This document shows, in pieces, positions 1 through 28,672 of a stretch of DNA of 32,000 bases (its first letter is position 1; each line of letters opens with the position of its first letter). Made by a program: the position numbers and the translations under genes. The DNA is from Trichodesmium erythraeum IMS101. GTDB taxonomy: Bacteria; Cyanobacteriota; Cyanobacteriia; Cyanobacteriales; Microcoleaceae. The DNA is taken from NCBI RefSeq assembly GCF_000014265.1, contig NC_008312.1, positions 2,700,001 to 2,732,000 of the forward strand, written 5' to 3'. The notes below the pieces were generated by a model. It saw only the letters and a program-made list of their open reading frames with translations, ran no database searches and was not told the DNA's origin.

Positions 1-1785
1 GTAGTCTTGGTTGACTTGGGCGGTTTGGTTGGCTGTGGTGTAGTTGACTTTGACTGTGGTGGTTGTGGGGTTGTCTAGGGTGACGTTGAATTTGGCGGTT
101 TTATTTGTGTTGCCTTCGGTGAGCTTGGTGTCGGAGATGGTGATGTTGGGGATGATGGTTATGGGGGTTTTGTTGATGAGGATGGATACGTTGTCATCCC
201 AATAGTTCGCCACAGCCAGATCAGGAATGCCGTCTCCATTTAAATCTTCTGCTGCTACTGACGCAGGTCCGTCTCCCACCGGAAAATTAGTACGTCGAGC
301 AAAACTACCGTCACCTTTTCCTGATAACACTGATACGTTGTCATCGCCACCGTTCGCCACAGCCAGATCAGGAATGCCATCTCCATTAAAATCTCCTACT
401 GCTACTGAAAACGGATCGTCTCCCACCGGAAAATTAGTAGCTGAACCAAAACTACCGTCACCTTTTCCTGATAACACTGATACGTTGTCATTCCACCTGT
501 TCGCCACAGCCAGATCAGGAATGCCATCTCCATTAAAATCTCCTACTGCTACTGAGATAGGTCCGTCTCCCACCGGAAAATTAGTAGCTGAACCAAAACT
601 ACCGTCACCTTTTCCTAATAACACTAATACGTTGTCATCGACCCAGTTCGCCACAGCCAGATCAGGAATGCCATCTCCATTAAAATCTCCTACTGCTACT
701 GACAAAGGTCGGCCTCCCACCGGAAAATTAGTAGCTGAACCAAAACTACCGTCACCTTTTCCCAATAACACTGATACGTTGTCATCCCGATAGTTCGCCA
801 CAGCCAGATCAGGAATGCCATCTCCATTAAAATCTCCTGCTGCTACTGACACAGGTCGGTCTCCCACCGGAAAATTAGTAGCTGAACCAAAACTACCGTC
901 ACCTTTTCCTGATAACACTGATACGTTGTCTGACCCGTCGTTCGCCACAGCCAGATCAGGAATGCCATCTCCATTTAAATCTTCTGCTGCTACTGACGCA
1001 GGTCCGTCTCCCACCGGAAAATTAGTAGCTGAACCAAAACTACCGTCACCTTTTCCTAATAACACTGATACGTTGTCTGAAGAAAAGTTCGCCACAGCCA
1101 GATCAGGAATGCCATCTCCATTAAAATCTCCTGCTGCTACTGAATATGGTCCGTCTCCCACCTTAAAATTACGAGCCTTCTCAAAATCAACCTTTTCACT
1201 AGCCTCAACCTCAACCTCAACACCCCCGACCCAAATATCTACCCGATCATCCTGACCCCGAAGCATCATCACCTGAAACTGAGTCAACTCCTCACCCCTC
1301 ACCAAAGCAGCCAATAACTCACCCTCATCTCCAGGGGAGTCCGACTCAGACAACTGAGAGTCCAAAAAATGCCCCAACTCCTCCAACAGCACATCCACCA
1401 AAACCCCATCAGTATCAGGCAATAAAGAATCAGCCAAATAAATTGAACCAGTCAAAGGATCATAGGCACCCACCGCCGGCTCCATATCCGCCGCCGGCAA
1501 CATAATAACCTCCGGCAAATTTTCCCCAGTCAAAACATCCTTTATCTGCTCCTTTGCCAGCTCCGGGTCCACAGTTTCACCAAAAGCCGTTTTAATATAG
1601 TCATCGAACTCCGGGGCCAAGATAAAATCAGCCAATTCGTCACGAACCTCACCCCAGGCACCTTGTATCATCGGGTCTGTAACCTCAGGGTTCGAGTCAG
1701 CCCCAGGGAGATAGTGGACATTTAGGGATGTCTCATCTGGTTCCTCGGGAAATAAAGAATGGTCATCTGGAGAAAATTCGTCCAT
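1..1785 (-). CDS. FG-GAP/VCBS seven-blade beta-propeller + Calx-beta repeat protein, paralog 1 (C-terminal part runs off the left edge)
   Basis: Probably absent from the ORF track because it has no stop codon inside the window. Nt 1-~1870 align almost base-for-base with 3181-~5070 (paralog 2). Minus-strand ATG at 1785-1783 gives MDEFSPDDHSLFPEEPDE. There are seven exact 147-nt (49-aa) units, anchored by TTCGCCACAGCCAGATCAGGAATGCC at 206, 353, 500, 647, 794, 941 and 1088 (minus sense GDFNGDGIPDLAVAN). The first Calx-beta unit (..ITISDTKLTEGNTNKTAKFNVTLDNP..VKVNYTTA..) starts near nt 190 and leaves the window. Differences from paralog 2 in the N-terminal part are substitutions plus one 12-nt in-frame indel. 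The stretches I hand-translated contain no stops. Confidence 0.8.
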   Translation of the reverse strand, partial: MDEFSPDDHSLFPEEPDETSLNVHYLPGADSNPEVTDPMIQGAWGEVRDELADFILAPEFDDYIKTAFGETVDPELAKEQIKDVLTGENLPEVIMLPAADMEPAVGAYDPLTGSIYLADSLLPDTDGVLVDVLLEELGHFLDSQLSESDSPGDEGELLAALVRGEELTQFQVMMLRGQDDRVDIWVGGVEVEVEASEKVDFEKARNFKVGDGPYSVAAGDFNGDGIPDLAVANFSSDNVSVLLGKGDGSFGSATNFPVGDGPASVAAEDLNGDGIPDLAVANDGSDNVSVLSGKGDGSFGSATNFPVGDRPVSVAAGDFNGDGIPDLAVANYRDDNVSVLLGKGDGSFGSATNFPVGGRPLSVAVGDFNGDGIPDLAVANWVDDNVLVLLGKGDGSFGSATNFPVGDGPISVAVGDFNGDGIPDLAVANRWNDNVSVLSGKGDGSFGSATNFPVGDDPFSVAVGDFNGDGIPDLAVANGGDDNVSVLSGKGDGSFARRTNFPVGDGPASVAAEDLNGDGIPDLAVANYWDDNVSILINKTPITIIPNITISDTKLTEGNTNKTAKFNVTLDNPTTTTVKVNYTTANQTAQVNQDY

Positions 1786-1814
1786 GGGAAATTTAGAGTA
1801 TAGTTTGACTAAAT

Positions 1815-1841
1815 ATTATAATAGCTGACTTGAAATTTGAA
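1815..1841 (-). promoter_or_regulatory. Predicted sigma70-type promoter of paralog 1 (TTCAAA-N15-TATAAT in minus sense)
   Basis: Minus sense reads ccttTTCAAAtttcaagtcagctatTATAATattt, about 30 nt upstream of the ATG at 1785. The same arrangement is conserved upstream of paralog 2 (5014-5041). No experimental support. Confidence 0.35.
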
Positions 1842-1900
1842 AAGGTGTTAGGTGGCAGGTTTTTAGTTTTTGGTTTTTGGTTTTTGATTTTTGATTTTAG
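1833..1900. repeat. Gene-proximal core variant (aaatttgaaaaggtgttaggtggcaggtt) followed by a short heptamer tract (GTTTTTA/GTTTTTG/ATTTTTG)
   Basis: Direct reading. Same motif family as the large array at 5030-6718. Confidence 0.85.
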
Positions 1901-2019
1901 ATGTGAATAATATTATATTTATGACCAAAATAAAAATGAACTAAGTAGCTTTTTACCCTCAGAAAAAAACTGGGAAATAATAAATAAGCTCAATAGATAA
2001 TTTGGTAAGTCCGACGTTA

Positions 2020-2063
2020 GGTAGCAGGTTTTAGGTTTTAGGTTGCAAGTTTTAGGAGGCAGG
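2020..2063. repeat. Short GGTAGCAGG/TTTTAGG-type repeat patch
   Basis: ggtagcaggttttaggttttaggttgcaagttttaggaggcaggc. It is related to the 14-15-nt GGTAGCAAGTTTTAG units seen at 5881-5915, 6250-6315 and 6585-6645. Confidence 0.7.
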
Positions 2064-2166
2064 CCGCAGTTCCCAGCCTGGTTTTACACGAATGATGCTG
2101 CCGAACATAATATTAGGAAATTATGTTTATTTAGACCTCAGCTCAAACCTCAGAAAGCTGATACCT

Positions 2167-2304
2167 TCAACCGCCAACATTCTCATAATTAACCTTCACC
2201 ACTTCACTGCTACTATTATCTAACTTGACCTCAAACTTCATACTTTTCTCACCCTTGTTTCCTTCAGTAACATTGGCATCCCTGATGGATATTTGGGGAA
2301 TTAT
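2167..2304 (-). pseudogene. Truncated fourth Calx-beta unit lying in frame after the TAG stop of paralog 2
   Basis: Minus sense after TAG (2307-2305) continues in the same frame as IIPQISIRDANVTEGNKGEKSMKFEVKLDNSSSEVVKVNYENVGG, then TGA (2169-2167). It matches the first ~40 residues of the preceding Calx-beta units (PQISIRDAKVTEGNRGKKQMKFEVELNS..KTVRVNYAT). Confidence 0.65.
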
Positions 2305-4974
2305 CTAATCTTTGGGAACCCCTTCGTCGTTATCAATAATTCTGCCGATCGCGTTGTTATCCGACAACCTACCATTTCTGGCACGGCTGAGTTTGACTTG
2401 AAACTGCTCATTATTTTCATCAACCCTATCTCCCAAAATAGGAATATTCACTATCTTTTTCCTCTGCCCTGGTTGGAATGTCACCACTCCCCTTTTATTT
2501 TGAAAATCTTTTCCTGACTTCGCGCTGCCATCTACTGTAGCGTAATTTACCCTCACTGTTTTCGTGCTCAGGCTGTTGAGCTCAACTTCAAACTTCATCT
2601 GTTTCTTACCCCTGTTTCCTTCCGTCACTTTAGCGTCCCTGATAGATATTTGGGGAAGTGGGTCGTCATTATCAATAATTCTGCCGACCGCTGTTTTATC
2701 TGACAATTTTCCATTTCTGGCACGGCTGAGTTTGACTTGAAACTCCTCGTTATTTTCATCAACCCTATCTCCCAAAATGGGAATATTCACTATCTTTTCC
2801 GTCTGCCCTGGCTTGAATGTCAGGACTCCCCTTTGATTTCGAAAATCTTTTCCTGACTTGGCGCTGCCCTCTTGGGTTCCATAATTTACTCTCACTGTTT
2901 TCCCGCTGGGGTTGTTTAATTTCACTTCAAATTCCATGTTTTTCTGACCTCGGTTTCCTTCCGTAACTTTGGCATCGCCGATAGATATTTGGGGAAGTGG
3001 GTCGTTATCAACGATAGTGCCCGTAGCCTCCCCATCTTTGATATTCGCATTCTGGGGGCTCCTCAGTTTTAGCCCGAATTTTTCCTTGGGTTCGTCTCGC
3101 TTATCTCCCAAGATGGGAACTGTTATGTTTTTGTTCGTTTCTCCTGGTCGAAAGGTCAGAGTGCCTGTAGTAATTTTGTAGTCTTGGTTGACTTTTGCGG
3201 TTTGGCTGGCTGTGGTGTAGTTGACTTTGACTATGGCGTTTGTGGGGTTGTCTAGAGTGACCGTGAATTTAGCGGTTTTATCTATGTTGCCTTCGGTGAT
3301 CTTGGTGTCCGAGATAGTGATGTTGGGAATGATGGTTATAGGGTTTTTGTTGATCAGGATGGATACGTTGCCATCCAACCAGTTCGCCACAGCCATATCA
3401 AGAATGCCGTCTCCATTAAAATCTTCTGTTGCTAATGAGAAAGGTCTGTCTCCCACCGGAAAATTAGTAGCTGAACCAAAACTACCGTCACCTTTTCCTA
3501 ATGACACTGATACCTTGTCTGAAAAGAAGTTCGTCACAGCCAGATCAGGAGTGCCGTCTCCATTAAAATCTTCTACTGCTACTGAAAAAGGTCCGCCTCC
3601 CAACGGAAAATTAGTAGCTGAACCAAAACTACCGTCGCCTTTTCCCGATAACACTGATACATTGTTTGAGTCTCTGTTCGCCACAGCCAGATCAGGAATG
3701 CCATCTGCATTAAAATCTCTTGCTACTACTGAGGTAGGTGTCTCTCCCACCGGAAAATTAATAGCTGGACCAAAACTACCGTCACCTTTTCCTGATAACA
3801 CTGATACATTGTCTGAAAAGAAGTTCGCCGCAGCCAGATCAGGAATGCCATCTCCATTAAAATCTTCTACTGCTACTGATATTGGTTCGTCTCCCACCAG
3901 AAAATTAGTAGCTGAACCAAAACTACCCTCACCATTTCCTAATAACACTGATACATTGTTTGAGTCTCTGTTCGCCACAGCCAGATCAGGAATGCCATTT
4001 CTATCAAAATCTCCTACTGCTACTGATCTTGGTTCGTCTCCCACCGGAAAATTAGTACGTCGAGCAAAACTACCGTCATCTTTTCCTGATAAAACTGATA
4101 CGTTGTCTGAACCAGCATTTGCCACAGCCAGATCAGGAATACCATCTCCATTAAAATCTCCTGCTGCTAGTGACTCTGGTCTATCTCCCACAAAAAAATT
4201 AGTAGCTGAACCAAAACTACCGTCACCATTTCCTGATAACACTGATACGTCGTCATCAGCCCTGTTCGCCACAGCCAGATCAGGAATGCCATCTCTATTA
4301 AAGTCTCCTACTACTAATGACCGAGGCTCATCTCCCACCAAAAAATCATCAACCTTCTCAAAATCAACCTTTTCACTAGCCTCAACCTCAACCTCAACAC
4401 CCCCGACCCAAATATCTACCCGATCATCCTGACCCCGAAGCATCATCACCTGAAACTGAGTCAACTCCTCACCCCTCACCAAACCAGCCAATAACTCACC
4501 CTCATCTCCAGGGGAGTCCGAGTCAGACAACTGAGAGTCCAAAAAATGCCCCAACTCCTCCAACAGCACATCCACCAAAACCCCATATTCTGCCCCATCA
4601 GTATCAGGCAATAAAGAATCAGCCAAATAAATTGAATCAGTCAAAGGATCATAGGCACCCACCGCCGGCTCCATATCTGCCGCGGGCAACATAATAACCT
4701 CCGGCAAATTTTCCCCAGTCAAAACATCCTTTATTTGCTCTTTTGCCAGCTCCGGGTCCACAGTTTCACCAAAAGCCGTCTTAATATAGTCATCGAACTC
4801 AGGAGCCAAGATAAAATCAGCCAATTCGTCACGAACCTCACCCCAGGCACCTTGTATCATCGGGTCTGTAACTTCAGGGTTCGAGTCAGCCCCAGGGAGA
4901 TAGTGGACATTTAGGGATGTCTCATCTGGTTCCTGGGGAAATAAAGAGTGGTCATCTGGAGAAAATTCGTCCAT
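2305..4974 (-). CDS. FG-GAP/VCBS seven-blade beta-propeller + 3x Calx-beta repeat protein, paralog 2
   Basis: 892-aa ORF in the track. The track start at 4983 is a TTG; the first ATG (4974-4972) gives MDEFSPDD, as in paralog 1. Layout: an acidic ~215-aa N-terminal domain, then seven DF[ND]xDGxPDLAVAN blades with exact 147-nt period (anchors 3383, 3530, 3677, 3824, 3971, 4118, 4265), then three ~105-aa Calx-beta-like units (TEGN..F.V.L...V.VNY.T..GSAK.G.DF....G.[LV]TF.PG...K...IPILGD..DE..E.F.VKL). Confidence 0.9.
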   Translation of the reverse strand: MDEFSPDDHSLFPQEPDETSLNVHYLPGADSNPEVTDPMIQGAWGEVRDELADFILAPEFDDYIKTAFGETVDPELAKEQIKDVLTGENLPEVIMLPAADMEPAVGAYDPLTDSIYLADSLLPDTDGAEYGVLVDVLLEELGHFLDSQLSDSDSPGDEGELLAGLVRGEELTQFQVMMLRGQDDRVDIWVGGVEVEVEASEKVDFEKVDDFLVGDEPRSLVVGDFNRDGIPDLAVANRADDDVSVLSGNGDGSFGSATNFFVGDRPESLAAGDFNGDGIPDLAVANAGSDNVSVLSGKDDGSFARRTNFPVGDEPRSVAVGDFDRNGIPDLAVANRDSNNVSVLLGNGEGSFGSATNFLVGDEPISVAVEDFNGDGIPDLAAANFFSDNVSVLSGKGDGSFGPAINFPVGETPTSVVARDFNADGIPDLAVANRDSNNVSVLSGKGDGSFGSATNFPLGGGPFSVAVEDFNGDGTPDLAVTNFFSDKVSVSLGKGDGSFGSATNFPVGDRPFSLATEDFNGDGILDMAVANWLDGNVSILINKNPITIIPNITISDTKITEGNIDKTAKFTVTLDNPTNAIVKVNYTTASQTAKVNQDYKITTGTLTFRPGETNKNITVPILGDKRDEPKEKFGLKLRSPQNANIKDGEATGTIVDNDPLPQISIGDAKVTEGNRGQKNMEFEVKLNNPSGKTVRVNYGTQEGSAKSGKDFRNQRGVLTFKPGQTEKIVNIPILGDRVDENNEEFQVKLSRARNGKLSDKTAVGRIIDNDDPLPQISIRDAKVTEGNRGKKQMKFEVELNSLSTKTVRVNYATVDGSAKSGKDFQNKRGVVTFQPGQRKKIVNIPILGDRVDENNEQFQVKLSRARNGRLSDNNAIGRIIDNDEGVPKD

Positions 4975-5013
4975 GGAAGTCAACTGAATTTAGAATATAG
5001 TTTTGACTAACAT

Positions 5014-5041
5014 ATTATAATAACTGATCTAAAATTTGAAA
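5014..5041 (-). promoter_or_regulatory. Predicted sigma70-type promoter of paralog 2 (TTCAAA-N15-TATAAT in minus sense)
   Basis: Minus sense reads ccttTTCAAAttttagatcagttatTATAATatg, about 40 nt upstream of the ATG at 4974. It is conserved with 1815-1841. Sequence-based prediction only. Confidence 0.35.
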
Positions 5042-5991
5042 AGGTGTTAGGTGGCAGGTTGTTGGTTTTTGGTTTTTGGTTTTAGTTTTTAGTTTTTGGT
5101 TTTTGGTAGTTTGAAAAAGTATTAGGCGGCAGGTTTTTGGTTGTTGGTTTTTGGTTTTAGTTTTTAGTTTTTGGTTTTTAGTTTTTGGTAGTTTGAAAAA
5201 GTGTTAGGCGGCAGGTTTTAGGTTTTAGGTTTTAGGTTTTAGGTTTTAGTTTTTAGTTTTTGGTTTTTGGTAGTTTGAAAAAGTGTTAGGCGGCAGGTTT
5301 TTGGTTTTAGGTTTTTAGTTTTTAGTTTTTAGTTTTTGGTTTTTGGTAGTTTGAAAAAGTGTTAGGCGGCAGGTTTTTGGTTTTAGGTTTTTAGTTTTTA
5401 GTTTTTAGTTTTTGGTTTTTGGTAGTTTGAAAAAGTGTTAGGCGGCAGGTTTTTGGTTTTAGGTTTTTAGTTTTTAGTTTTTAGTTTTTAGTTTTTGGTA
5501 GTTTGAAAAAGTGTTAGGCGGCAGGTTGTTGGTTTTTGGTTTTAGTTTTTAGTTTTTAGTTTTTAGTTTTTGGTAGTTTGAAAAAGTGTTAGGCGGCAGG
5601 TTTTTGGTTTTAGGTTTTTAGTTTTTGGTTTTTAGTTTTTGGTAGTTTGAAAAAGTGTTAGGCGGCAGGTTTTTGGTTTTAGGTTTTTGGTTTTAGTTTT
5701 TAGTTTTTGGTTTTAGGTAGTTTGAAAAAGTGTTAGGCGGCAGGTTTTTGGTTTTTGGTTTTTGGTTTTAGTTTTTAGTTTTTAGTTTTTAGTTTTTAGT
5801 TTTTGGTAGTTTGAAAAAGTGTTAGGCGGCAGGTTTTTGGTTTTTAGTTTTTAGTTTTTAGTTTTTAGTTTTTAGTGTTTGGTTTTAGGTAGCAAGTTTT
5901 AGGTAGCAAATTTTAGGTTGCAGAAGTCAATATCAACTCCCATCAAAGCTACAGCTAATTTTTTAAGGTTACACAGCAGCCGGGGAGGATG

Positions 5992-6050
5992 TCACCATAA
6001 GCGAGCCTTAGCTATAGCAATATTTCCCGATAAACACACTCCAACATCAG
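5992..6050 (-). pseudogene. Orphan copy 1 of the surE 3' end (stop codon + ~19 codons) embedded in the repeat field
   Basis: tcaccataagcgagccttagctatagcaatatttcccgataaacacactccaacatcag matches 6719-6777 of the genuine surE 3' end, with few mismatches and one extra base. The match breaks off into a heptamer tract (ttagttttt). Confidence 0.85.
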
Positions 6051-6385
6051 TTAGTTTTTAGTTTTTGGTTTTTGGTTTTAGTTTTTAGTTTTTGGTTTTA
6101 GGTAGTTTGAAAAAGTGTTAGGCGGCAGGTTTTAGGTTTTAGGTTTTTAGTTTTTAGGTTTTTAGTTTTTAGTTTTAGGTAGTTTGAAAAAGTGTTAGGC
6201 GGCAGGTTTTTGGTTTTAGGTTTTTAGTTTTTAGTTTTTAGTGTTTGGTTTTAGGTAGCAAGTTTTAGGCGGCAAGTTTTTGGTAGCAAGTTTTAGGTAG
6301 CAAATTTTAGGTTGCAGAAGTCAATATCAACTCCCATCAAAGCTACAGCTAATTTTTTAAGGTTACACAGCAGCCGGGGAGGATG

Positions 6386-6461
6386 TCACCATAAGCGAGC
6401 CTTAGCTATAGCAATATTTCCCGATAGACACACATCAACATCAGTCCCTGGATCAGACTTT
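6386..6461 (-). pseudogene. Orphan copy 2 of the surE 3' end (stop codon + ~24 codons) embedded in the repeat field
   Basis: tcaccataagcgagcc...gatagacacacatcaacatcagtccctggatcagactttt matches 6719-~6794 of surE, then switches to heptamers. Confidence 0.85.
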
Positions 6462-6718
6462 TAGTTTTTAGTTTTTGGTTTTTGGTTTTAGTTTTTAGTT
6501 TTTGGTTTTAGGTAGTTTGAAAAAGTGTTAGGCGGCAGGTTTTTGGTTTTTAGTTTTTAGTTTTTAGTTTTTAGTGTTTGGTTTTAGGTAGCAAATTTTA
6601 GGCGGCAAGTTTTTGGTAGCAAGTTTTAGGTAGCAAATTTTAGGTTGCAGAAGTCAATATCAACTCCCATCAAAGCTACAGCTAATTTTTTAAGGTTACA
6701 CAGCAGCCGGGAAGGATG

Positions 6719-7417
6719 TCACCATAAGCGAGCCTTAGCTATAGCAATATTTCCCGATAAACACACATCAACATCAGTCCCTGGATCAGACTTTCGGTTA
6801 AGATCGTATCCCACATAAAGATATCCGTTCTCTTTTTTAACAAATTCTGTAAGTAGAGGGCGGTTACAGAGGCGACAAAAAACCATTTCAGGCTCAGGTG
6901 CATCAGGTTCAAGGTGGGGAAAATTAACCGTCCATAAAGTTCCTTCCTCAGGTGGTTCAGCTAATAACTTCTTCAAGACCATCACCGTCCACTGTATTGC
7001 TCTTTCCCAGTCAATTTCCCAGTCATTTCTCTTAAAATGAGAAAAAGCGATCGCTGGAATTCGATGTATTGTAGCCTCTCTAGCCGCTGCAATAGTTCCA
7101 GAAGGATAAATATCCGAGCCCATATTACAGCCGCTATTAACTCCAGAGACCACAAAATTGATATCATCATACAGATAGTTTACCCCCAAACGAACACAGT
7201 CAGCCGGCGTACTATCAACACTCACCTCAGTTTCAGAACGCCATTCTACTGGTATAACTGTGCGGATATTGACTTGATGGCCACAGCCGGACTGGTGGTG
7301 TTTCGGTGCAACCATAACAATGCGGTCCGAAGTCACTTGGGATAGTGCCTTATGTAATGCACGAATTCCAGGAGCGTCAATACCATCATCATTAGTGATT
7401 AAAAAAGACGTTACCAT
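6719..7417 (-). CDS. surE: 5'/3'-nucleotidase SurE
   Basis: 232 aa. N-terminal signature FLITNDDGIDAPGIRAL and a later GVNSG..MG.D...SGT..AAREA match the SurE family. Length is typical. ATG at 7417-7415. Confidence 0.9.
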   Translation of the reverse strand: MVTSFLITNDDGIDAPGIRALHKALSQVTSDRIVMVAPKHHQSGCGHQVNIRTVIPVEWRSETEVSVDSTPADCVRLGVNYLYDDINFVVSGVNSGCNMGSDIYPSGTIAAAREATIHRIPAIAFSHFKRNDWEIDWERAIQWTVMVLKKLLAEPPEEGTLWTVNFPHLEPDAPEPEMVFCRLCNRPLLTEFVKKENGYLYVGYDLNRKSDPGTDVDVCLSGNIAIAKARLW

Positions 7418-14810: not shown

Positions 14811-16581
14811 TTTACTTAGGTTGCTTTGTTATTCTGGTGAAATTCACCAAATTAATTCAAATCTCAGGTTTCACTTTTAGATACTGCTTTGATATTTCTC
14901 AGAAAATCAAGTAATTGCAGTCCATAAGTTATGTCTTCCACAAACTTAAAATCTGCGTCAACACCATCTACTTTGACTTAATTGGCTTTTGTTTTAGGTT
15001 ACAAACTTCCCTGTTTATAGTTTTAGTTGTTAACCATAGCCTAGTAGAGGTTCCTCTGACTTGTTGTCATAGTCAACTATTTAGCTTAAAGTAACCATTT
15101 ACTTATAACTAAAATATAGTTGTCACCCTTTAGGAATATTTTAGGTTCTTTTCATTTAATCTACAATTTTTCTAAACAAAATTTATTTTATTTTAACTAT
15201 TGCACCAAAAAACTGCCCCATACTTTGGAGCCACAAAATTAAAATTGAAGATGTACTCTTAAGTTTCATACCTTTTTAGTAATTTAAAATAGAGATCTCG
15301 GAAAAATAAAGAAGTTATACTATAGTAATCAAACATATTATTTGAAGCGATTGATTATAAGTAGTATATGAGAATAGGTCCACAGTAATCCTGAATTAAC
15401 CTCACAAGGTTGATTGAGAATCAAGTATAAATAACAGTAGAGATTATTAACATATCTACCAAAAGTTATTAATGAAACTTTAAGAGAGTAAGATTTTATC
15501 TATAGATAGGTATTAAAAAGTCAATTAAAGGCAAAAAAATATATGTATAAAAAACAAGAATAATATGACTTGGGGCAGAAAAAAAAATTAGGGAATAAAA
15601 AAAACTAATAATTGTGTTTTCTTTTGGTGAATATATTATTGATATAGAAACTAAAAATTTAGGAAAAAGAGTAGCATAAATAATTCATGTAAAACACAAT
15701 AAAAATTCCCTTAACAACAAAAAAAATACTTGGGATCAAGCCTAAATTGGATTAGGATTAATCAAAATACCTAAAAAAAACTCAAAAATTCAAGAATTAA
15801 CTAGCAAAAAAAAGCCGAAAAACCAAGAGCAGACATCTGAAATAATTTTGAACGAATCAGCCTTATTCCTCCATCTCTCTATAAATTTTTGTTTTAGCAG
15901 TAAACATTAGGGTATTTAATATAGCTATATTTAGGGATGTAGAGTTTTACCGCGATATGGGCATTCCGAAAATCTTGGTAGTTAGATAGCTCTCTTCAAA
16001 ATAGTTACAGTAAGTATTTTGCTATTTTTACAAGATTTCTAATACCAATGAGCAAAAATAATGATATGTATCAAATGACACTTAAATTATTAAGTAATTA
16101 ATATAGGCAGCATCACCTTTTTAATTAATAATGTGTTAATTATTCTCATATTGTAGGGAGATTGTATAGAGCATCCCTTCCTATACAGAAGTTTTATAGA
16201 ACGCCCCTAACTACTCCTATGCTCCCAGGAAAGATAGGAATAGAACAGTTGTTGAGCAATAGTATAAACTTTAGGAGAAAGCCGGTTTATTTCCCTAATT
16301 ATTATTGTTAAAATTATGAAATTTCGTATCATAACCCTATGATCGTGTGTAATTCTTAAAAAATAAAGTTTTTTGGGAGTCATGGGAAATTAGTAGCATA
16401 TATAACAATGAATTATTAAAAAAAAATTTAAAATAAAAAGAGTTTGTAAAGATAGATAACTATGCAAACATTATTGTCTATAGTAACAAACAGTAATAAA
16501 AATTATTAACCTTTATTACCTTGTCAATAGTTAATTTTTTGTTAAATTAGCAACAATAATAATGTCAATCATATAAGATTT

Positions 16582-17496
16582 ATGGCCAATTCTATTTTAA
16601 ATAACAATGGAATTATTTACTCCCAGTCTCAAGCACAGGGACGCATTCGTGGCTTAGTATGGAAACTCTGTATAGCAACCCTAGTATTGATGGCTATTGG
16701 TAGTGCTACCAGAGTGATGAATGCAGGTTTAGCTTGTCCTGATTGGCCGTTGTGTTATGGTAAGTTGGTACCAATGGCACAAATGAACCTACAGGTGTTT
16801 TTAGAATGGTTTCATCGGCTAGATGCAAGTTTAATTGGCTTGGGCGCGATCGCTATGATGGGTTTATCATGGTGGCATAGACAGGAACTACCTAGTTGGC
16901 TGCCCTGGGCATCTACCTTTGCTTTTTGTCTAATAGTCTTCCAAGGTGTACTCGGTGGATTAACAGTTACAGAATTATTACGTTTTGATATTGTTACTGC
17001 TCATCTGGGTACCGCATTACTTTACTTTATGACTCTATTAGTAATAGGTATATCAATGCTGCCATACAAAGGGACTGGAAATGTTGGTAAATTACCTTGG
17101 GTGGGATTAACTGCTGCTATTCTAGTATATTTACAAAGTTTACTAGGTGGGTTAGTTTCTTCTCAATGGGCATTGCATCAATGTTTTGGTCTAGAAGAAC
17201 TTTGCACGGTAATGAATAGTCATTTGGCTGGGGTTGTTCCTCCGACTTTAGTAACATTAATATTAGTAGTAATGGTATGGCGTACCTCTGCTTTACATCC
17301 GCTGCTGCGAAACTTAGCCAACTGTTCTGGTCTATTAGTATTAGCTCAGATAGGTTTGGGGGTTATGACTTTCCGGTTACGTCTGCAAATTGAGCTGTTA
17401 ACTGTATCTCACCAGGCTGTAGGAGCTGCATTACTAGGAACTTTAGTAGCTTTTACTGTTATAGCTTTACGCGATCGACAAGCTGTAAATGTCTAA
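16582..17496 (+). CDS. ctaA: Heme A synthase (COX15/CtaA family)
   Basis: 304 aa, polytopic. ATRVMNAGLACPDWPLCYG and FLEWFHR are typical CtaA/COX15 motifs. Divergent from ctaCDE, as is common in cyanobacteria. Confidence 0.88.
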   Translation: MANSILNNNGIIYSQSQAQGRIRGLVWKLCIATLVLMAIGSATRVMNAGLACPDWPLCYGKLVPMAQMNLQVFLEWFHRLDASLIGLGAIAMMGLSWWHRQELPSWLPWASTFAFCLIVFQGVLGGLTVTELLRFDIVTAHLGTALLYFMTLLVIGISMLPYKGTGNVGKLPWVGLTAAILVYLQSLLGGLVSSQWALHQCFGLEELCTVMNSHLAGVVPPTLVTLILVVMVWRTSALHPLLRNLANCSGLLVLAQIGLGVMTFRLRLQIELLTVSHQAVGAALLGTLVAFTVIALRDRQAVNV

Positions 17497-18048
17497 TTGT
17501 TAATACAGATACAGTAATATACCCCTCTTTTGTGAGTTATTATATTAGAAACGTTAGCTATAACTTTAAGCGTTTAGCTATCAGCTAGCCTTCCACGTAG
17601 GAACTGCGTTAACAGCTCAAATAAAAACTATTAGCTCTAAAGGATTTTTGCTTTGCTCAATATCCCAATATCAAGTTGCATTGATTAACCACAATATAAA
17701 AAGATGGCATACCGATGAGAGAGTCATTTTTAATATAACTCAAGCTAAAAGCTTAGAGATTTAACCCTTGGAGGTTCAGTAGGTTGGAAGTTTTGTAGCG
17801 TTCCAAAAATCAATTTCTAGGCTGCACAGTAGAAGTCATCTAATAGATGACCAAAGATAGCTGATAAATTTGGCTAATTAATGAGACTTGATATAACCTA
17901 GATGCGTAGTGCTATACAAGTAACTAAATTTTTCAAATTTGCTAACATCCAAAATGGACTGGCACTAAGATCCGTTTCTATATAGCTTATAAACTTTAGA
18001 TGATGGAAATTATAACCAGTTTCAATAGAAAATTAACAAATAAAATCC

Positions 18049-19035
18049 ATGCAACAAGTTATTTCTCATAGTCTACCACGGCGCCATAACAATATCCTAC
18101 AGGTATTTAAAAGCTATTATCAACTTACAAAACCCCGCATTATTTTGCTGCTATTAATTACAACTGCAGCGGGAATGTGGTTGGGAGCAAAAGGAGAAGT
18201 ATCTCTCTTTCTTTTGTTCGTTACATTAACAGGTGGTGCATTAGCTTCTGGTGCAGCTAATGCTATTAACTGTATCTACGACAGCGATATTGACTATATT
18301 ATGGAGCGTACTCGCTGGCGTCCTATTCCATCTGGGAGAGTTAAACCTCGTGATGCTCTGATTTTTGCGTTGACTCTGGCAGCAACATCATTTACTTTAC
18401 TCACAGTTTTTGCTAATTTACTAGCTGCACTGTTGGCCATGTCGGGAATAGTTTTTTATGTTGGTGTTTACACTCACTGGTTAAAACGTCACAGTGTTCA
18501 AAATATTGTAATTGGTGGTGCTGCTGGTGCTATTCCTCCGTTAGTGGGTTGGGCCGCAGTCACAGGGGAATTGAGTTGGGCTGCTTGGTTATTATTTGCA
18601 ATTATTGTGGTCTGGACTCCTCCTCATTTTTGGGCATTAGCAATTTATATTCGTGATGAATATCAGGAAGTTGGGGTGCCTATGTTACCTGTAATTGAGG
18701 GAAATGAGGAAACAGCTAGACAGATTTGGGTTTATACTCTAATTTTAATTCCTATGACGCTATTGCTGGTTTATCCGTTGCATGTGAGTGGAGCCATTTA
18801 TGCAGTATTAGCGACTTACCTTGGTGTAATTTTTATTAAGAAAGCTTGGCAGTTGTTGAAAGATCCTTCGAATAAAGATGTAGCACGATCGCTGTTTAAG
18901 TATTCTATCTACTATATGATGTTATTGTGTTTGGTAATGGTCATTGATAGTTTGCCTTTTACTCATGGAATTACTACTGCTTTAGCAGATAGTTGGCAAA
19001 CTTTTATTGGTGGAGCGATCGCAATTTTATTTTAG
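18049..19035 (+). CDS. ctaB: Protoheme IX farnesyltransferase (heme O synthase)
   Basis: 328 aa UbiA-type prenyltransferase. Motifs are [32 protein letters not shown] (NxxxDxxxD) and [10 protein letters not shown]. Confidence 0.93.
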
Positions 19036-19151
19036 GAGCTATATCAAAATAAGTTGTATAAATTTCATTTGAGATGAATTGTGAAATTTAGCTTCTATCA
19101 AAAAACTGTTTGAGTTATTTTTACCAAAAAATTGGGTACAAATATAAAGGC

Positions 19152-19178
19152 TCCCCCTTTGAGGGGGACTTTTAATTT
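19152..19178 (+). terminator. GC hairpin + T-rich tail: ctaB terminator and/or terminal hairpin of the adjacent IS200/IS605 remnant
   Basis: TCCCCCtttgaGGGGGActtttaatttt, a 6-bp stem with a 5-nt loop, 117 nt after the ctaB stop. It directly abuts the stop (19174-19172) of the minus-strand tnpA remnant, so the assignment is ambiguous. Confidence 0.5.
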
Positions 19179-19610
19179 TGAATGTACTTTTTAAGATTTG
19201 CAAGTGGTGCGCCTCTAACTAAAGTCACATACAGAGGAAGGACTCCAAAGCAGAGTTTTGTGAGTTTTTGTATATTCTGCTGGGCTATATCATCTACTCG
19301 AAACATCTTTAAGATGATTGACAATTTTGTGATCTGGATAATTTGGGTGGGTATTTGATAGCTATATGAACATGATAATTTTCGCCATTAAATTTTAGTA
19401 TCTTGAAGTTTATCTCTTTACCCCAGGAGGGGAGCAAGAGAAGTGGGTGCAGTACCCTATAAAATTTCAGCCGACATAGGAGCTTCGAGTCGGTTCTTTC
19501 TCTGTGTCTGCTTTCTTCAGAAGAGCTTCGTTAACAGGTCCCAGAGAATCTCAAATAAGTCTTTAGTTTCAATTAGACAATATAATTTTGTTTTAGGTAG
19601 GCAAAATGCT
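19172..19610 (-). mobile_element. tnpA: Decayed IS200/IS605-family Y1 transposase gene (tnpA pseudogene)
   Basis: Hand translation of the minus strand across at least two frameshifts gives EINFKILKFNGENYHVHIAIKYPPKLSRSQ / VNHLKDVSSR*YSPAEYTKTHKTLLWSPSSVCDFS* / RGAPLANLKKYIQN*. This follows the family pattern (..EFNGE.DH[IV]H.L..YPPKLS...VN.LKGVSSR....LWSPSYF..S.GGAPL..LK.YI.NQ). The catalytic-Tyr context WSPSYF reads WSPSSV here. The 5' extent is uncertain. Confidence 0.75.
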
Positions 19611-19667
19611 TACCTTTCCTTTTTATTAGCCTGAGATTATCTAAAATTATTTTTCAAAATATGATTT

Positions 19668-20190
19668 TTAAAACCATTGCAGCTGATTTTTAATGATAAT
19701 TTCTTGGCACATATTACTAACCCATTGAATAACCACAGCATTATAGGGATAAGGTTGATATTGAGTGCGCAAAATTGTTTTTCGCAGTTCATTGAAAAAT
19801 TCAGATTTCGTAACTCTGTATCAACTATTGTCTGTGGTTCCATCTCCAATAGAAGAGAGCACAAAAAAATTCAGTTTACTTTTGACATCTAAACCATAGC
19901 GATCGCTCATCAAACTTCTATGTTGGTTTTCACAAATTTTTCTTTTAATATTATTGTAGGCTTGATTTATTTCCTGATAATTGAAAAATCAAAAAAACCA
20001 CTACAAGCTCTAAATTGTTGGCAACTACACCTCCATTAAAAATTCTATATCCAGTGTATAGTGACTCTCCACTCACTATTAGGAATTGTCTTCCAGCAAC
20101 TTCCGTATTAGCTTTTATAATGCTCATGGCTATAGATGGAGTTTTAGTATTAGGGAATAAAGCGATCGCTTCTGCTTTATCCTAGATAAA
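19668..20190 (-). pseudogene. Frameshifted remnant of an unidentified gene
   Basis: Minus-strand fragments lie in different frames:
- DKAEAIALFPNTKTPSIAMSIIKANTEVAGRQFLIVSGESLYTGYRIFNGGVVANNLELVVVF
- EINQAYNNIKRKICENQHRSLMSDRYGLDVKSKLNFFVLSSIGDGTTDNS*
- YRVTKSEFFNELRKTILRTQYQPYPYNAVVIQWVSNMCQEIIIKNQLQWF*
I cannot assign a family. The overlapping short track ORFs on both strands (19637-19864, 19677-19892) are consistent with debris. Confidence 0.3.
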
Positions 20191-20198
20191 AATTGCTC

Positions 20199-20395
20199 TG
20201 CAGAAAATAGGAAATATAGACAATTTTTGACCAAATAAATAATCGCGTTTATGTAGCAATTCATGATAGTTATACCATGGGTAAATTATCTGTATTTAAG
20301 TATATAAAATATCTCTATTTTGGGATGATAAAGGATTACATTTTTCAGAATATTTGACTTTTGATAACAACTGTGAGGATTCATTTACCCTAAAG
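20199..20395 (+). pseudogene. Degenerate fragment of a type-A ATPase gene (codons ~18-85, including the Walker A region)
   Basis: cagaaaataggaaatatagacaatttttgaccaaataaataatcgcg...ccatgggtaaattatctg...tatataaaatatctctattttgggatgataaaggattacatttttcaga...gataacaactgtgaggattcatttaccc aligns with 20590-20790 of the intact gene at roughly three quarters identity by eye. It contains stop codons. Confidence 0.7.
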
Positions 20396-20466
20396 CAATA
20401 AGCGTAGGTTAGGTCTCAGAAAAAAGCCCCCACAAAAATATAGCGCGTATTAGGTTTGACTAGAAA

Positions 20467-20495
20467 TTTAACAACCCTGAATACTCTGATATAAT
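20467..20495 (+). promoter_or_regulatory. Predicted promoter of ATPase cassette 1 (TTTAAC-N17-TATAAT)
   Basis: tttaac (20467-20472), a 17-nt spacer, then tataat (20490-20495), 43 nt before the G1 ATG. The block ctgaaNactctgatataatNtgaNNttatagtcaaNctaaag recurs upstream of G4 (26014-26042 region). Confidence 0.4.
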
Positions 20496-20538
20496 TGAGT
20501 GTTATAGTCAAACTAAAGTTCAAATAATTTATCTAATT

Positions 20539-21768
20539 ATGTCATCCAATAAATTCTTTCCCAATAAACCTGTTCCTCCAGAGAAGTTTGTCGGTAGAAA
20601 ATCTGAACTATACACAATTTTTGACCAAGTTAATAATCGTGGTCATGTGGCTATTCATGGTGCTTCTGGTATGGGTAAATCATCTTTACTCGACTATATA
20701 AAATATCCTCATTTTTGGGATGATAAAGGATTAAATTTTTCAGAGGCTTTGATTGTTTATCACAACTGTGAGGGTTCATTTACGCCAAATAGTTTTTGGC
20801 AAGAAATTTTACAAGAGTTAAGAAATGAAGCTGAAGGTGATACAGATTTACAGAGTAAGATTGATGATGTCTTAAAATTAGAAACAATAGAAATAAGAGA
20901 TATACGTCGAATACTTAAACAAATTGGGAAAAGAAATAAATTTTTATTATTATTATTAGATGACTATAATGGAATACTTCGTACACCAGAATATTATAGC
21001 AAAGACTATCAAAAGTCTAGAGAAGTACAGACGTTTTTAAGTGGGTTGCGTAATCTGGCAGTTCATAGTACAGAAAGTCAATATTTCTCAACAGTTGTTG
21101 CTGCATTCCAAAAAGTGGATGAGTTAGGTCCAGAGATTCCTCGTGGTGGTTCTCCTTGGTATAATCATTATCTATATGTAGATTTAAAACCTTTTAGTCG
21201 GGAGGATATTAATAATTATTTTTTTAATTCCGATAGTCATTTCTTTATTTCAATTCCTGAAAATATTCAGAAAGAAAAAGTGTTAGAAATTACTAGTGGA
21301 TATCCAATCTTACTTCAACAGGCAGGTTATATATTTTCTAAACTGGATCGAGTTATTGATATTAATACTTTTAAGGCAGAACTTAAAAATCAAACTGAAC
21401 AGATATTTAAGGATATATGGAGAGAATTGACTACAGACGAACAAAAGCTTTTACAGCTCATTGTCATTGATAACTTCAAAGGAGAAGTTAATGGAAAGCG
21501 TTATTCTCATGATGGTATAGATCAAGTATTTGAGGAAAATAAGTATAAACTGACAACCTTGGAGCAAAAAGGTGTTATCTCTCAGAGCCCAGACCAGGAT
21601 AAATATAATTTTTCTTCTTCTTTAATGCAAGATTTAGTTCTTCAAAAATTGGCTGAAAGTATTTGGGACCCTAAAAAGGGTAAAATCTTGTTTGACAGCT
21701 TTGGAACCAAGATTAACTATGAGCAGTCCATGATTGAAGAATTATTAGGAATAATCCCTTTTAATTAA
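20539..21768 (+). CDS. STAND/ATPase_2-like P-loop NTPase, type A (G1)
   Basis: 409 aa. Motifs are FFPNKPVPPEKFVGRKSEL, Walker A GASGMGKSSL, Walker B FLLLLLDDY, LKPFSREDI, GxP-type motif TSGYPILLQQAGY, and a C-terminal winged-helix-like LTTDEQKLLQLIVI...LEQKGVISQ. No effector or sensor domain recognised. Closest paralog is G4. Confidence 0.8.
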   Translation: MSSNKFFPNKPVPPEKFVGRKSELYTIFDQVNNRGHVAIHGASGMGKSSLLDYIKYPHFWDDKGLNFSEALIVYHNCEGSFTPNSFWQEILQELRNEAEGDTDLQSKIDDVLKLETIEIRDIRRILKQIGKRNKFLLLLLDDYNGILRTPEYYSKDYQKSREVQTFLSGLRNLAVHSTESQYFSTVVAAFQKVDELGPEIPRGGSPWYNHYLYVDLKPFSREDINNYFFNSDSHFFISIPENIQKEKVLEITSGYPILLQQAGYIFSKLDRVIDINTFKAELKNQTEQIFKDIWRELTTDEQKLLQLIVIDNFKGEVNGKRYSHDGIDQVFEENKYKLTTLEQKGVISQSPDQDKYNFSSSLMQDLVLQKLAESIWDPKKGKILFDSFGTKINYEQSMIEELLGIIPFN

Positions 21769-21857
21769 TCAAAAAATCAAGAATAGTCAACTCAATTTTG
21801 GCAATTTTCTTTATACTTAAATAAAAAATTAAACCCTAATATGAGGTAGTACTTCAG

Positions 21858-24755: not shown

Positions 24756-24803
24756 TCAAGAGTTACGATTTAGTATATTAAATATTTTTAACTTTCAAGA
24801 AAG

Positions 24804-25916
24804 ATGAACGATTACAAATACAGACCAAATCCTTATATTTTTGGCAAACCAATTTATCAAAAAAAACAATTATTTGGTAGAGAAAATACTGTTAAAAGAA
24901 TTCAAAATAACATTAAAAATAATATAAAAATAACTTTGTTGCATATCCAAAGACGTATTGGTAAAACTTCATTAATAACTTGTTTGCCTCAGTTTTTCAC
25001 TGATGATATTAAGTGTGTTACTTTTTCATTTCAAGGTTATAAAAATAGATCAATACTTGAAATCTTAAATAATCTTGCTGATGAGATTGCTAATACTATT
25101 GATGGAGTCCCTAGAGAAGTAAGAGAACTAGCTGATAGTTCAGAAAATTTTTTTCGGATTTTTTTGCCAAGGATTATTAATAAATACTTATCTGGTAAAA
25201 ACCTTGTTCTTCTCCTAGATGAATTTGATGTTTTAGAAGAAGATCAAACAACGTTTATTCATGGAAAATACTTATTTAATGAATTAAAAAAAGCTGTGAA
25301 CCGAGAAGAAAAACTATTTGCTATCCTGGTTTTTGGTAGACCATTAAAAGATATGACCTATCTAGGAGAATTGTTACAAAAAGAAGGTCAAGAGACTATA
25401 GAAGTTGGTTTGCTGGATAAGAAAAGTACACACAATTTGATTGTTGAGCCAGCTAAGGGAACATTAGAATATGAAGCAGATGCAATTGATGCTATTTGGC
25501 AACTATCCGCGGGTCATCCTTCTCTAACACAACTACTATGCTTGTATATTTTTAGGTTTTGTATTCAAAAAGGAATAAAAAAGGTAACTCATACTCATGT
25601 CGACTCAATTTTAGATGAAGCAATGGAGGGAGGTAAGGCAGCATTAAAAGGCTTTATAGAACCTTTGAATGAAAACGAAAATTTGTTTTTTCGTGCAGTA
25701 GCAAAAGCTCAGAATGAAGTTGGAGAAAACCGACTAAAGGCTAATATAAAAAAATCGCAGTCTGTAGGGAAACGTTTAGCTGAAGAATATGGCTTTTTAG
25801 AAGAAAAAGAAGATGGAACAGGCTATAAAATTAAAGTCGAGTTAGTCCGGCGTTGGCTAGTAAAAAATTATCCTTTATCTGACAAAGAAAAGCTGCAAGT
25901 GGAAAAAGCTATTTAA
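24804..25916 (+). CDS. STAND/ATPase_2-like P-loop NTPase, type B'' (G3)
   Basis: 370 aa. Motifs are NPYIFGKPIYQKKQLFGREN, deviant P-loop LLHIQRRIGKTSLITCLPQ (first Gly replaced by Ile), Walker B LVLLLDEFD, SAGHPSLTQLLC and KVELVRRWL. Close to the N-terminal half of G6 at the DNA level in the P-loop region (about 90% identity by eye). Confidence 0.8.
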   Translation: MNDYKYRPNPYIFGKPIYQKKQLFGRENTVKRIQNNIKNNIKITLLHIQRRIGKTSLITCLPQFFTDDIKCVTFSFQGYKNRSILEILNNLADEIANTIDGVPREVRELADSSENFFRIFLPRIINKYLSGKNLVLLLDEFDVLEEDQTTFIHGKYLFNELKKAVNREEKLFAILVFGRPLKDMTYLGELLQKEGQETIEVGLLDKKSTHNLIVEPAKGTLEYEADAIDAIWQLSAGHPSLTQLLCLYIFRFCIQKGIKKVTHTHVDSILDEAMEGGKAALKGFIEPLNENENLFFRAVAKAQNEVGENRLKANIKKSQSVGKRLAEEYGFLEEKEDGTGYKIKVELVRRWLVKNYPLSDKEKLQVEKAI

Positions 25917-26013
25917 AAAAATAAAATCCCATATTTTGTGTTTTGGATGTGGAACTGCTATTAAAACCTAGCCAACTTAATTAAAGTATGAAATATCTGA
26001 AAGATGCCGAAGA

Positions 26014-26042
26014 TTTAGCAATTCTGAAGACTCTGATATAAT
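26014..26042 (+). promoter_or_regulatory. Predicted promoter of ATPase cassette 2 (TTTAGC-N17-TATAAT)
   Basis: tttagc (26014-26019), a 17-nt spacer, then tataat (26037-26042), 43 nt before the G4 ATG. Same position and flanking sequence as the G1 upstream element. Confidence 0.4.
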
Positions 26043-26085
26043 ATGAAATTATAGTCAAGCTAAAAGTAAAATAGTTGATCCAATT

Positions 26086-27363: not shown

Positions 27364-27395
27364 TAGCAAACGTCTAGTTGGATGTAGTTTTGCAA

Positions 27396-28643: not shown

Positions 28644-28672
28644 TATTCAGATAATAACTAAACAATCTAATA

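Follow-up and report, generated by a model that had tools for sequence, protein, structure and literature searches.

The short tandemly repeated repetitive (STRR) sequences of cyanobacteria are 'usually made up of 7 bp repeats' (PMC2670836). In Trichodesmium erythraeum IMS101, the array near Tery_0080 spans more than 6 kb in 7 repeats of ~0.9 kb, is highly expressed and has a repeat sequence without similarity outside its locus (Pfreundt et al. 2014, PMC4143802); in Haemophilus influenzae, the (ATCTTTC)n heptamers of hmw1A and hmw2A are transcribed in the 5' untranslated region and pair with a G-rich arm into a hairpin processed by RNase III, and hmw1A expression is inversely proportional to repeat number (PMC12721329). 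Here we describe a repeat field of ~1.7 kb that separates surE from an FG-GAP/Calx-beta gene in T. erythraeum IMS101. The field lies in a stretch of 32,000 nt (contig NC_008312.1, positions 2,700,001 to 2,732,000), the whole of which we call the window and number from its first letter. It is a genuine repeat field with three levels of organisation, far beyond chance. We consider it probable that the field is young and confined to one lineage, having arisen when the short repeat-bearing DNA preceding the FG-GAP promoter was amplified in the manner of a satellite, and it looks like a by-product left by slippage and unequal recombination, not a proven genetic switch.

Each of the described systems resembles the field in part. 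The comparison with STRR sequences, drawn in an initial annotation of this DNA, is apt as an analogy, as the field also consists of tandem 7-bp units in non-coding, intergenic DNA of a filamentous cyanobacterium; it breaks down over the unit sequence and the hairpin feature. STRR1, STRR2 and STRR3 reportedly have the consensus sequences CCCCAGT, TTGGTCA and CAACAGT, families to which CCAAAAA, CTAAAAA and CCTAAAA, the units of the field, do not belong, and these units cannot form the hairpins reported for STRR. Moreover, the host forms no heterocysts, and the array is hierarchical and ~10 times longer than typical STRR tracts. With the Tery_0080 array the field shares its organism and tandem units that include the duplicated 3' part of a neighbouring gene, here surE; it differs in having units of 75 and 333-394 nt that are built of heptamers and lack a promoter-like site. 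As with the hmw1A and hmw2A tracts, its tandem heptamers precede a large gene of the adhesin type and vary in number across isolates, but its repeats lie upstream of the predicted -35 box, its RNA is predicted to be unstructured and a relative appears to dispense with the array. Finally, its nesting of monomer, unit and super-unit, the homogenisation by unequal exchange and the rapid turnover between close lineages recall the higher-order satellites of eukaryotes, although this is a bacterial chromosome, the field measures 1.7 kb only and no centromeric or structural role is indicated. We class the field with the intergenic tandem-repeat arrays of the slippage and unequal-recombination kind; its nesting is unusually clear and its origin can be traced.

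Anatomy of the repeat array

Besides ~130 heptamer-class units, the field contains 13 near-identical cores, a further core that is degenerate, 14-mer blocks and three super-units, and Tandem Repeats Finder returned periods of 7, 14, 75-77, 89, 333 and 394 within it. The initial annotation had recognised heptamer tracts, 13 cores at intervals of 69-89 nt whose units differ in length through heptamer or hexamer copy number, and a super-unit that occurs three times and includes units of 14-15 nt; all of these were recovered by the analyses described below, and Pfam matches bore out surE and the FG-GAP gene as the flanking genes (Table 1). The limits given there, 5030-6718, hold only in part: repeats do occupy this interval, but the repeated sequence runs on past 6718 and into surE as far as 6794.

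When the minus strand was parsed into tokens, the repeat tracts fell in heptamer register and yielded 130 heptamer-class tokens, among which CTAAAAA (43), CCAAAAA (41), CCTAAAA (27) and CTAAAA (9) were accompanied by rarer variants. The strand asymmetry is marked, with a GC skew of +0.70 and an AT skew of -0.46 at 5001-6000. At the second level, a search with a 31-nt core gave 13 plus-strand matches with at most one mismatch, from 5105 to 6511, while none of 100 shuffled sequences contained any match; inside the sub-arrays these cores are 69-89 nt apart. On the minus strand the 27-nt core reads CCTGCCG, CCTAACA, CTTTTTC and AAACTA in succession, 12 of the 13 copies are identical, and the variation in unit length arises solely from the 6-9 tokens that separate one core from the next. 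The 14-mer is itself composed of two heptamer-length halves, CCTAAAA and cttgcta.

The third level is a segmental duplication into a gene, with little or no homology at the junctions, because the super-units hold a unique, surE-derived segment joined to the heptamers by two different junctions. The super-unit marker CAGAAGTCAATATC occurs at exactly 5921, 6315 and 6648, and by alignment and direct reading the unique segment measures 130-147 nt per super-unit, the third 'copy' being the real end of surE. That the super-units contain the 3' end of surE had been overlooked in the initial annotation. In the alignment the three surE-derived copies are 1-3 substitutions apart, with private substitutions in the super-unit copies. 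The junctions differ as well: in super-unit 2, CTAAAA is joined to GTCTGATCC and shares AAA with surE, while the other, CTAA joined to CTGATG, shares ~1 nt. The surE fragments point to indiscriminate segmental duplication and not to a designed regulatory module. We also noticed three copies of a TTG-start open reading frame (ORF) of 47-57 aa (MQKSISTPIKATANFLRLHSS...) on the plus strand at 5918-6061, 6312-6464 and 6645-6818, antisense to the 3' end of surE and to the copies made of it; these are probably spurious and were triplicated by the super-unit duplication.

The core can be related to the promoter of the FG-GAP gene, hereafter gene A. The predicted gene A promoter has 10 of 12 consensus matches, is the sole good consensus promoter on the sense strand and is followed by a leader of ~30 nt; it is intact, single and outside the repeats, which stop short at the -35 box. 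In composition the core is chimeric: its 5' half is 14-mer-like (CCTGCCGCCTAACA versus CTTGCCGCCTAAAA), and the -35 region of the gene A promoter makes up its 3' half. The 13 amplified cores have the -35-like half without a -10 box, and a consensus scan of both strands found no promoter-like site within them; the only such site within the field is a weak 9/12 match in a 14-mer block, running from 6622 to 6595.

The promoter, leader and start codon are conserved in the alignment of gene A, its tandem paralog gene B and two contigs from related Trichodesmium (L005 and L006), and the element CCTGCCACCTAACACC is common to the promoters of both paralogs. The region upstream of gene B, 3 kb away, has one unit only and presents the architecture of the array in miniature. 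Because of this counterpart, we conclude that the motif classes are older than the gene duplication and that only the gene A copy ballooned.

Table 1. Features of the surE to FG-GAP region, in window coordinates
Feature	Position	Strand	Composition and evidence
FG-GAP paralog B, second gene of the tandem	1-1785	-	ATG at 1785; near-identical N-terminal domain
Unexpanded counterpart of the array upstream of gene B	1815-2056	-	predicted promoter 1843 to 1815; one core-like element 1835-1859; 5 heptamers 1860-1898; unique AT-rich stretch; 14-mers 2017-2056
FG-GAP/Calx-beta gene A, directly downstream of the array	2305-4974	-	Pfam; acidic N-terminal domain of ~190 aa
Predicted sigma-70-type promoter of gene A	5042 to 5014	-	-35 TTTTCA 5042-5037; 17-nt spacer; -10 TATAAT 5019-5014; ~40 nt before the ATG
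Degenerate 14th core, gene-proximal, CCTGCCACCTAACACCTTTTCAAAT	5034-5058	-	overlaps the -35 box; direct reading, token parse, paralog alignment
Level-2 sub-array of 10 units	5059-5835	-	27-nt core plus 6-9 tokens, period 69-89 nt; nine cores identical, one with 1 mismatch
Super-unit 1, heptamer tract and 14-mer block	5836-5920	-	period 14 at 5882-5920
Super-unit 1, unique segment	5921-6051	-	surE-downstream 70 nt, duplicated (5921-5991); final 60 nt of the coding sequence, duplicated in truncated form (5992-6051)
Super-unit 2, repeat part	6052-6314	-	heptamers; cores at plus-strand 6101 and 6178; 14-mers 6248-6314
Super-unit 2, unique segment	6315-6461	-	copy of the 70 nt downstream of surE (6315-6385); copy of the last 76 nt of the coding sequence (6386-6461)
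Super-unit 3, repeat part	6462-6647	-	heptamers; one core (6511); 14-mer block 6582-6647
Source copy of the duplicated segment	6648-6794	-	original 70 nt that follow surE (6648-6718); original final 76 nt of the gene (6719-6794)
surE (5'/3'-nucleotidase)	6719-7417	-	PF01975, E=7.5e-49; identical to IMS101 ABG51034.1 / WP_011611409.1

The locus in relatives and the spread of its repeats

In order to follow the locus in relatives, surE and the members of its 90% cluster were traced in public assemblies, which fell into four locus classes. An independent assembly (L002, GCA_018457135.1) has a 10.3-kb flank that is 100% identical to IMS101 and matches the initial 347 nt of the array, among them the first junction with a surE fragment, which is that of super-unit 2; this junction is therefore not an error of the IMS101 assembly. 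Six further contigs (L001, L003, L004, L007, L008 and L010) have flanks that are 99.7-99.8% identical (~2.5 single-nucleotide differences per kb), and the flank of L009 is 97.6% identical; all of them enter an array of the same elements. The unit numbers and orders of these seven contigs depart from IMS101 within the first few hundred bases; one of them, L007, has at least 9 cores in a single contig and no surE fragment. Structural variability, in that unit orders differ between contigs with 99.7-99.8% identical flanks, is in keeping with a slipping array; it is qualified by the fact that all of these contigs are short-read and that every one in the array-bearing class terminates inside the array. 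The array accounts for breaks at the same spot in every short-read assembly of the clade, and it could serve as a hypervariable marker, of the variable-number tandem repeat type, for T. erythraeum populations that differ by ~0.25% elsewhere.

A different arrangement was found in Trichodesmium sp. MAG_R01 (L005, GCA_023356555.1) and on a separate metagenome scaffold (L006), the flanks of which are 96.5-97.2% identical to IMS101. Here the surE stop codon is followed by 70 nt, five 14-mers, three CCTAAAA heptamers, CCTTTTCAAAT...TATAGT/TATAAT and the ATG of a protein beginning MDEFSPDD. The core array is absent from both, and the intergenic region measures ~230 nt. In the alignment the MAG_R01 promoter also lacks the CCTGCC element and has plain heptamers in its place. 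Judged by this comparison, the locus can do without the array in a lineage whose flanks are 97% identical. In Trichodesmium clades that stand farther off (St18_bin1-type and others, 85-87% identity), the sequences part immediately after the surE stop codon; the gene that follows surE is there an ATP-grasp/SGL or a DUF4359 gene, and neither heptamers nor an array follow surE in the contigs compared. From these comparisons it follows that the DNA after the surE stop codon belongs to the FG-GAP cassette and that the 1.7-kb state is confined to the line of T. erythraeum.

Some contigs of T. thiebautii type carry an extra insert of ~95 nt after surE (~160-250 nt after the gene in L133 and L134, ~150-240 nt in L136), bounded by the inverted repeats CAGGACTTACG...CGTAAGTCCT and missing from others in that clade; the insert has the appearance of a miniature inverted-repeat element.

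Beyond the locus, the core and the heptamers are distributed differently. The exact degenerate core pattern had no match in 185,579 GTDB representative genomes, among which the source genome may be masked or absent, and a metagenome scan with AAACYTGCYRCCTAAMAC (14 specified bases) gave only single chance matches among the matches listed. Plain (CYAAAAA) arrays with at least 4 copies, on the other hand, occur in at least 119 stretches (L011-L129) of 30-190 nt each, in genomes of many phyla that include Bacteroidota, Acidobacteriota, Chloroflexota, several cyanobacteria, the genus Paenibacillus and others. Since such arrays occur across many phyla, the CYAAAAA heptamer is a common slippage-prone microsatellite and not a speciality of Trichodesmium; no Trichodesmium stood among the matches listed, a result that speaks to the spread of the heptamer and not to its genome-wide frequency in Trichodesmium. 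Among these same matches, the arrays are intergenic in 109 of 119 cases (~92%) and show no orientation bias towards the downstream gene (same strand in 45 versus 43), while the A-rich strand trails a same-strand gene somewhat more often (55 versus 30). They have one level, with no interspersed core or higher-order unit, unlike the field.

In the ~127 kb of Trichodesmium DNA covered, the repeat family is present in three places, namely the field, the region upstream of paralog B and one 14-mer tract in Trichodesmium sp. St5_bin8 (L139), and some dispersal of the 14-mer/heptamer family in Trichodesmium is likely. No description of the array was found in the literature on heptanucleotide or STRR repeats in Trichodesmium. 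The St5_bin8 contig also encodes, at 3100-3990, a homologue of the FG-GAP N-terminal domain that is 66% identical and has quite different upstream repeats: a run of ~120 nt of CTCCCAAA/TTCCCAAA-type units precedes the promoter, three tandem units of ~100 nt, each with a HIP1 site (GCGATCGC), lie farther upstream, and four 14-mers of the form GGTGGCAGGTTTTA stand upstream of a divergent dnaE-like gene. Upstream repeat tracts may be a recurring theme of the FG-GAP gene family.

Origin of the array and competing explanations

Before the expansion, the surE stop codon would have been followed by 70 nt, a small number of 14-mers and then of CYAAAAA-type heptamers, the promoter with its -35 and -10 boxes and the gene, an arrangement still visible in MAG_R01 and, in miniature, upstream of paralog B. 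The degenerate core at the gene-proximal edge would be the ancestral copy, its 3' part being the -35 region. Three nested processes would have enlarged it in the T. erythraeum line. By one of them, slipped-strand mispairing may have altered the numbers of heptamers. By another, a single duplication could have fused the -35 region (CTTTTTCAAA) back onto upstream repeats (CTACC plus heptamers), and its product would be a unit of ~75 nt with a core that combines the 14-mer-like element and a promoter-less -35 half; this unit would then have been multiplied and homogenised to 13 copies through unequal recombination or slippage between these long direct repeats. By the third, segmental duplication mediated by short homology, with two different junctions, would have extended from the heptamers into the 3' end of surE, yielding super-units of 333 and 394 nt that bear dead surE fragments. 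Throughout, the functional promoter would have remained one intact copy on the side next to the gene. RecA prefers G/T-rich strands as substrates, and this may have favoured such exchanges.

The array itself is most likely devoid of a dedicated function. It may at most hold surE and the FG-GAP promoter apart as a passive spacer, for which a straight and unstructured form is predicted, with strand asymmetry (C+A-rich in the sense direction). It offers a case in which the growth of Trichodesmium non-coding DNA can be reconstructed, from ~230 nt to 1.7 kb and with part of a neighbouring gene engulfed on the way. The array can serve as a worked example of non-coding genome growth and to mark strains; for T. 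erythraeum, the genome of which is ~40% non-coding according to the literature, it is unsurprising.

Four considerations weigh against a young expansion of this kind. The differences between strains rest on short-read contigs from different samples, which were possibly mis-threaded through the repeats; the direction of change, expansion in T. erythraeum as opposed to collapse in MAG_R01, is suggested by the paralog and by parsimony; the array occupies an upstream regulatory position and its units copy a promoter-flanking element, so that it may exert a dosage, decoy or architectural effect; and arrays are kept in several sub-lineages, including the one with a 97.6% identical flank (L009), which could reflect retention rather than drift.

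The initial annotation had proposed that copy-number slippage changes the promoter context, as in contingency-locus phase variation. More broadly, a contingency locus or rheostat would let the repeat copy number alter FG-GAP/Calx-beta transcription and thereby generate heritable surface-protein heterogeneity between cells or strains, an explanation that we regard as unlikely. The 7-bp repeats upstream of hmw1A and the TAAA tract upstream of nadA in Neisseria provide models for such a locus. The situation here is similar in that heptamer repeats stand upstream of a putative extracellular adhesin-like gene and the array structure varies among near-identical strains, and adhesin expression tuned by the length of a heptamer simple-sequence repeat has a precedent (PMC12721329). 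However, where a contingency locus carries its repeat inside the ORF, in the -35/-10 interval or in the transcribed leader, the repeats of the field lie upstream of the -35 box of a promoter that is predicted, not mapped. As the predicted promoter and leader are outside the repeats, a change in copy number cannot alter the -35/-10 spacing, the reading frame or the leader, and the sister lineage and the paralog have the same promoter without the array. Moreover, the sense RNA does not form a hairpin comparable to the RNase III-processed one of hmw1A (-2.6 kcal/mol over 301 nt, z = +1.9, weaker than shuffled sequences), and units of 75-390 nt that include gene fragments are atypical of tuned simple-sequence repeats. 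In this form, the slippage proposal is not favoured by the anatomy and is at best partly supported.

A more specific version, in which recombination sets the number of upstream units and this number tunes transcription of the extracellular FG-GAP/Calx-beta protein gene through the 27-nt element, carried on a straight A-tract rod, appears doubtful to us. If true, such a rheostat would create surface heterogeneity at the level of strains or filaments in a free-living, colony-forming marine cyanobacterium, and would place a contingency-type locus outside host-associated pathogens. Likewise, any modulation of the FG-GAP gene by the array would extend repeat-mediated expression variation to a free-living diazotroph of ecological importance, but no finding requires it.

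Equally doubtful is that the array acts as an operator, a decoy or an architectural element, the 27-nt core binding a regulator, sigma factor or RNA polymerase that its fourteen copies titrate or cooperatively load, or a rigid A-tract rod insulating the promoter from surE. The core does span the sequence flanking the -35 box and is the best-conserved element of the field, the CCTGCCACCTAACACC element stands in both paralogs' promoters, and the array is predicted to be unusually straight (ratio of end-to-end distance to contour length in a wedge model of 0.98, compared with 0.93 for flanks and shuffled sequences and 0.42 for a phased control; the curvature result is indicative only). Yet the MAG_R01 promoter has plain heptamers in place of CCTGCC, recent amplification equally predicts a high core identity, and with no match in the GTDB representative genomes, subject to the masking or absence noted above, the core is not a dispersed regulatory motif. 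No protein is known to bind the core.

It seems less probable again that the field is a transcribed non-coding array, formed either by read-through from surE into a long CA-rich leader of the FG-GAP gene or from start sites of its own. Read-through would be possible since the terminator scan found no terminator-like site in the field, including the stretch after surE, and T. erythraeum transcribes much non-coding DNA, its most abundant RNA coming from another gene-fragment array (PMC4143802). On the other hand, the cores lack promoter-like sites, no RNA structure, Rfam family or conserved RNA-like element was recognised in the array, and the locus is outside the top-20 transcripts of Table 1 of that study, the main text of which does not mention it (PMC4143802). 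Least probable of all, and very improbable in our judgement, is an assembly artefact in which the IMS101 reference expanded or mis-ordered a shorter repeat: short-read assemblies all break here and identical 76-nt units are hard to count, but the independent L002 assembly yields the first 347 nt with the surE-fragment junction, the L007 contig has its cores in another population and the super-unit copies bear private substitutions.

Several other identities were considered and rejected. An RNA element was rejected on the lack of any Rfam match at E<=1 on 1700-7000 or at gathering thresholds over the whole window, on the absence of transfer RNA and transfer-messenger RNA genes, and on folding that is worse than that of shuffled sequences on both strands (z = +1.3 for the antisense, G/U-rich plus strand). 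There is no ORF of 30 aa or more within the repeat tracts. Phased A-tract curved DNA or an UP element is rendered improbable by the wedge model and by poor phasing at 10-11 bp: the A5-tracts recur every 7 bp, out of helix phase, and the AA/TT signal is 0.004-0.019 at 10-11 bp as opposed to 0.037 at 7 bp. The field is not a CRISPR array either, as its 'spacers' are low-complexity heptamer runs shared between units and Rfam gave no CRISPR match. A Rho-loading site would fit the C-rich, G-poor and unstructured sense RNA, yet was dropped because cyanobacteria, to our knowledge, lack Rho. Multiple promoters or terminators within the units were likewise rejected, given the clean cores and the single weak site in a 14-mer block.

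The FG-GAP genes and their surroundings

The ORF of gene A extends over 2305-4983 on the minus strand, with the real ATG at 4974, and its product displays FG-GAP, Calx-beta and DUF7601 domains by Pfam. On the far side of surE lie a methyltransferase gene and cytochrome oxidase genes of the ctaCDE type. Both FG-GAP genes contain in-frame tandem repeats (185-1171, 3380-4346 and 2324-3005), with periods of 147 and 294 nt in the FG-GAP repeats, which are 82-90% identical, and of 339 nt in the Calx-beta domains. On account of these long in-gene repeats and of the near-identical acidic N-terminal domain of 190 aa in the paralogs, the whole neighbourhood is taken to be recombination-prone.

The N-terminal domain (4384-4974, minus strand) had 8 matches at E<=1e-5 among 5.8 billion proteins, and no obvious signal peptide was seen in it. 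Its homologues come from Trichodesmium, Okeania, Crocosphaera and metagenome sequences, and a distant match (P0020) carries PF15639. Finally, the window is AT-rich at 15000-30000, with a GC content of 0.27-0.33 as compared with 0.43-0.48 in the FG-GAP genes, and the sign of the GC skew there is opposite to that of the first half of the window.

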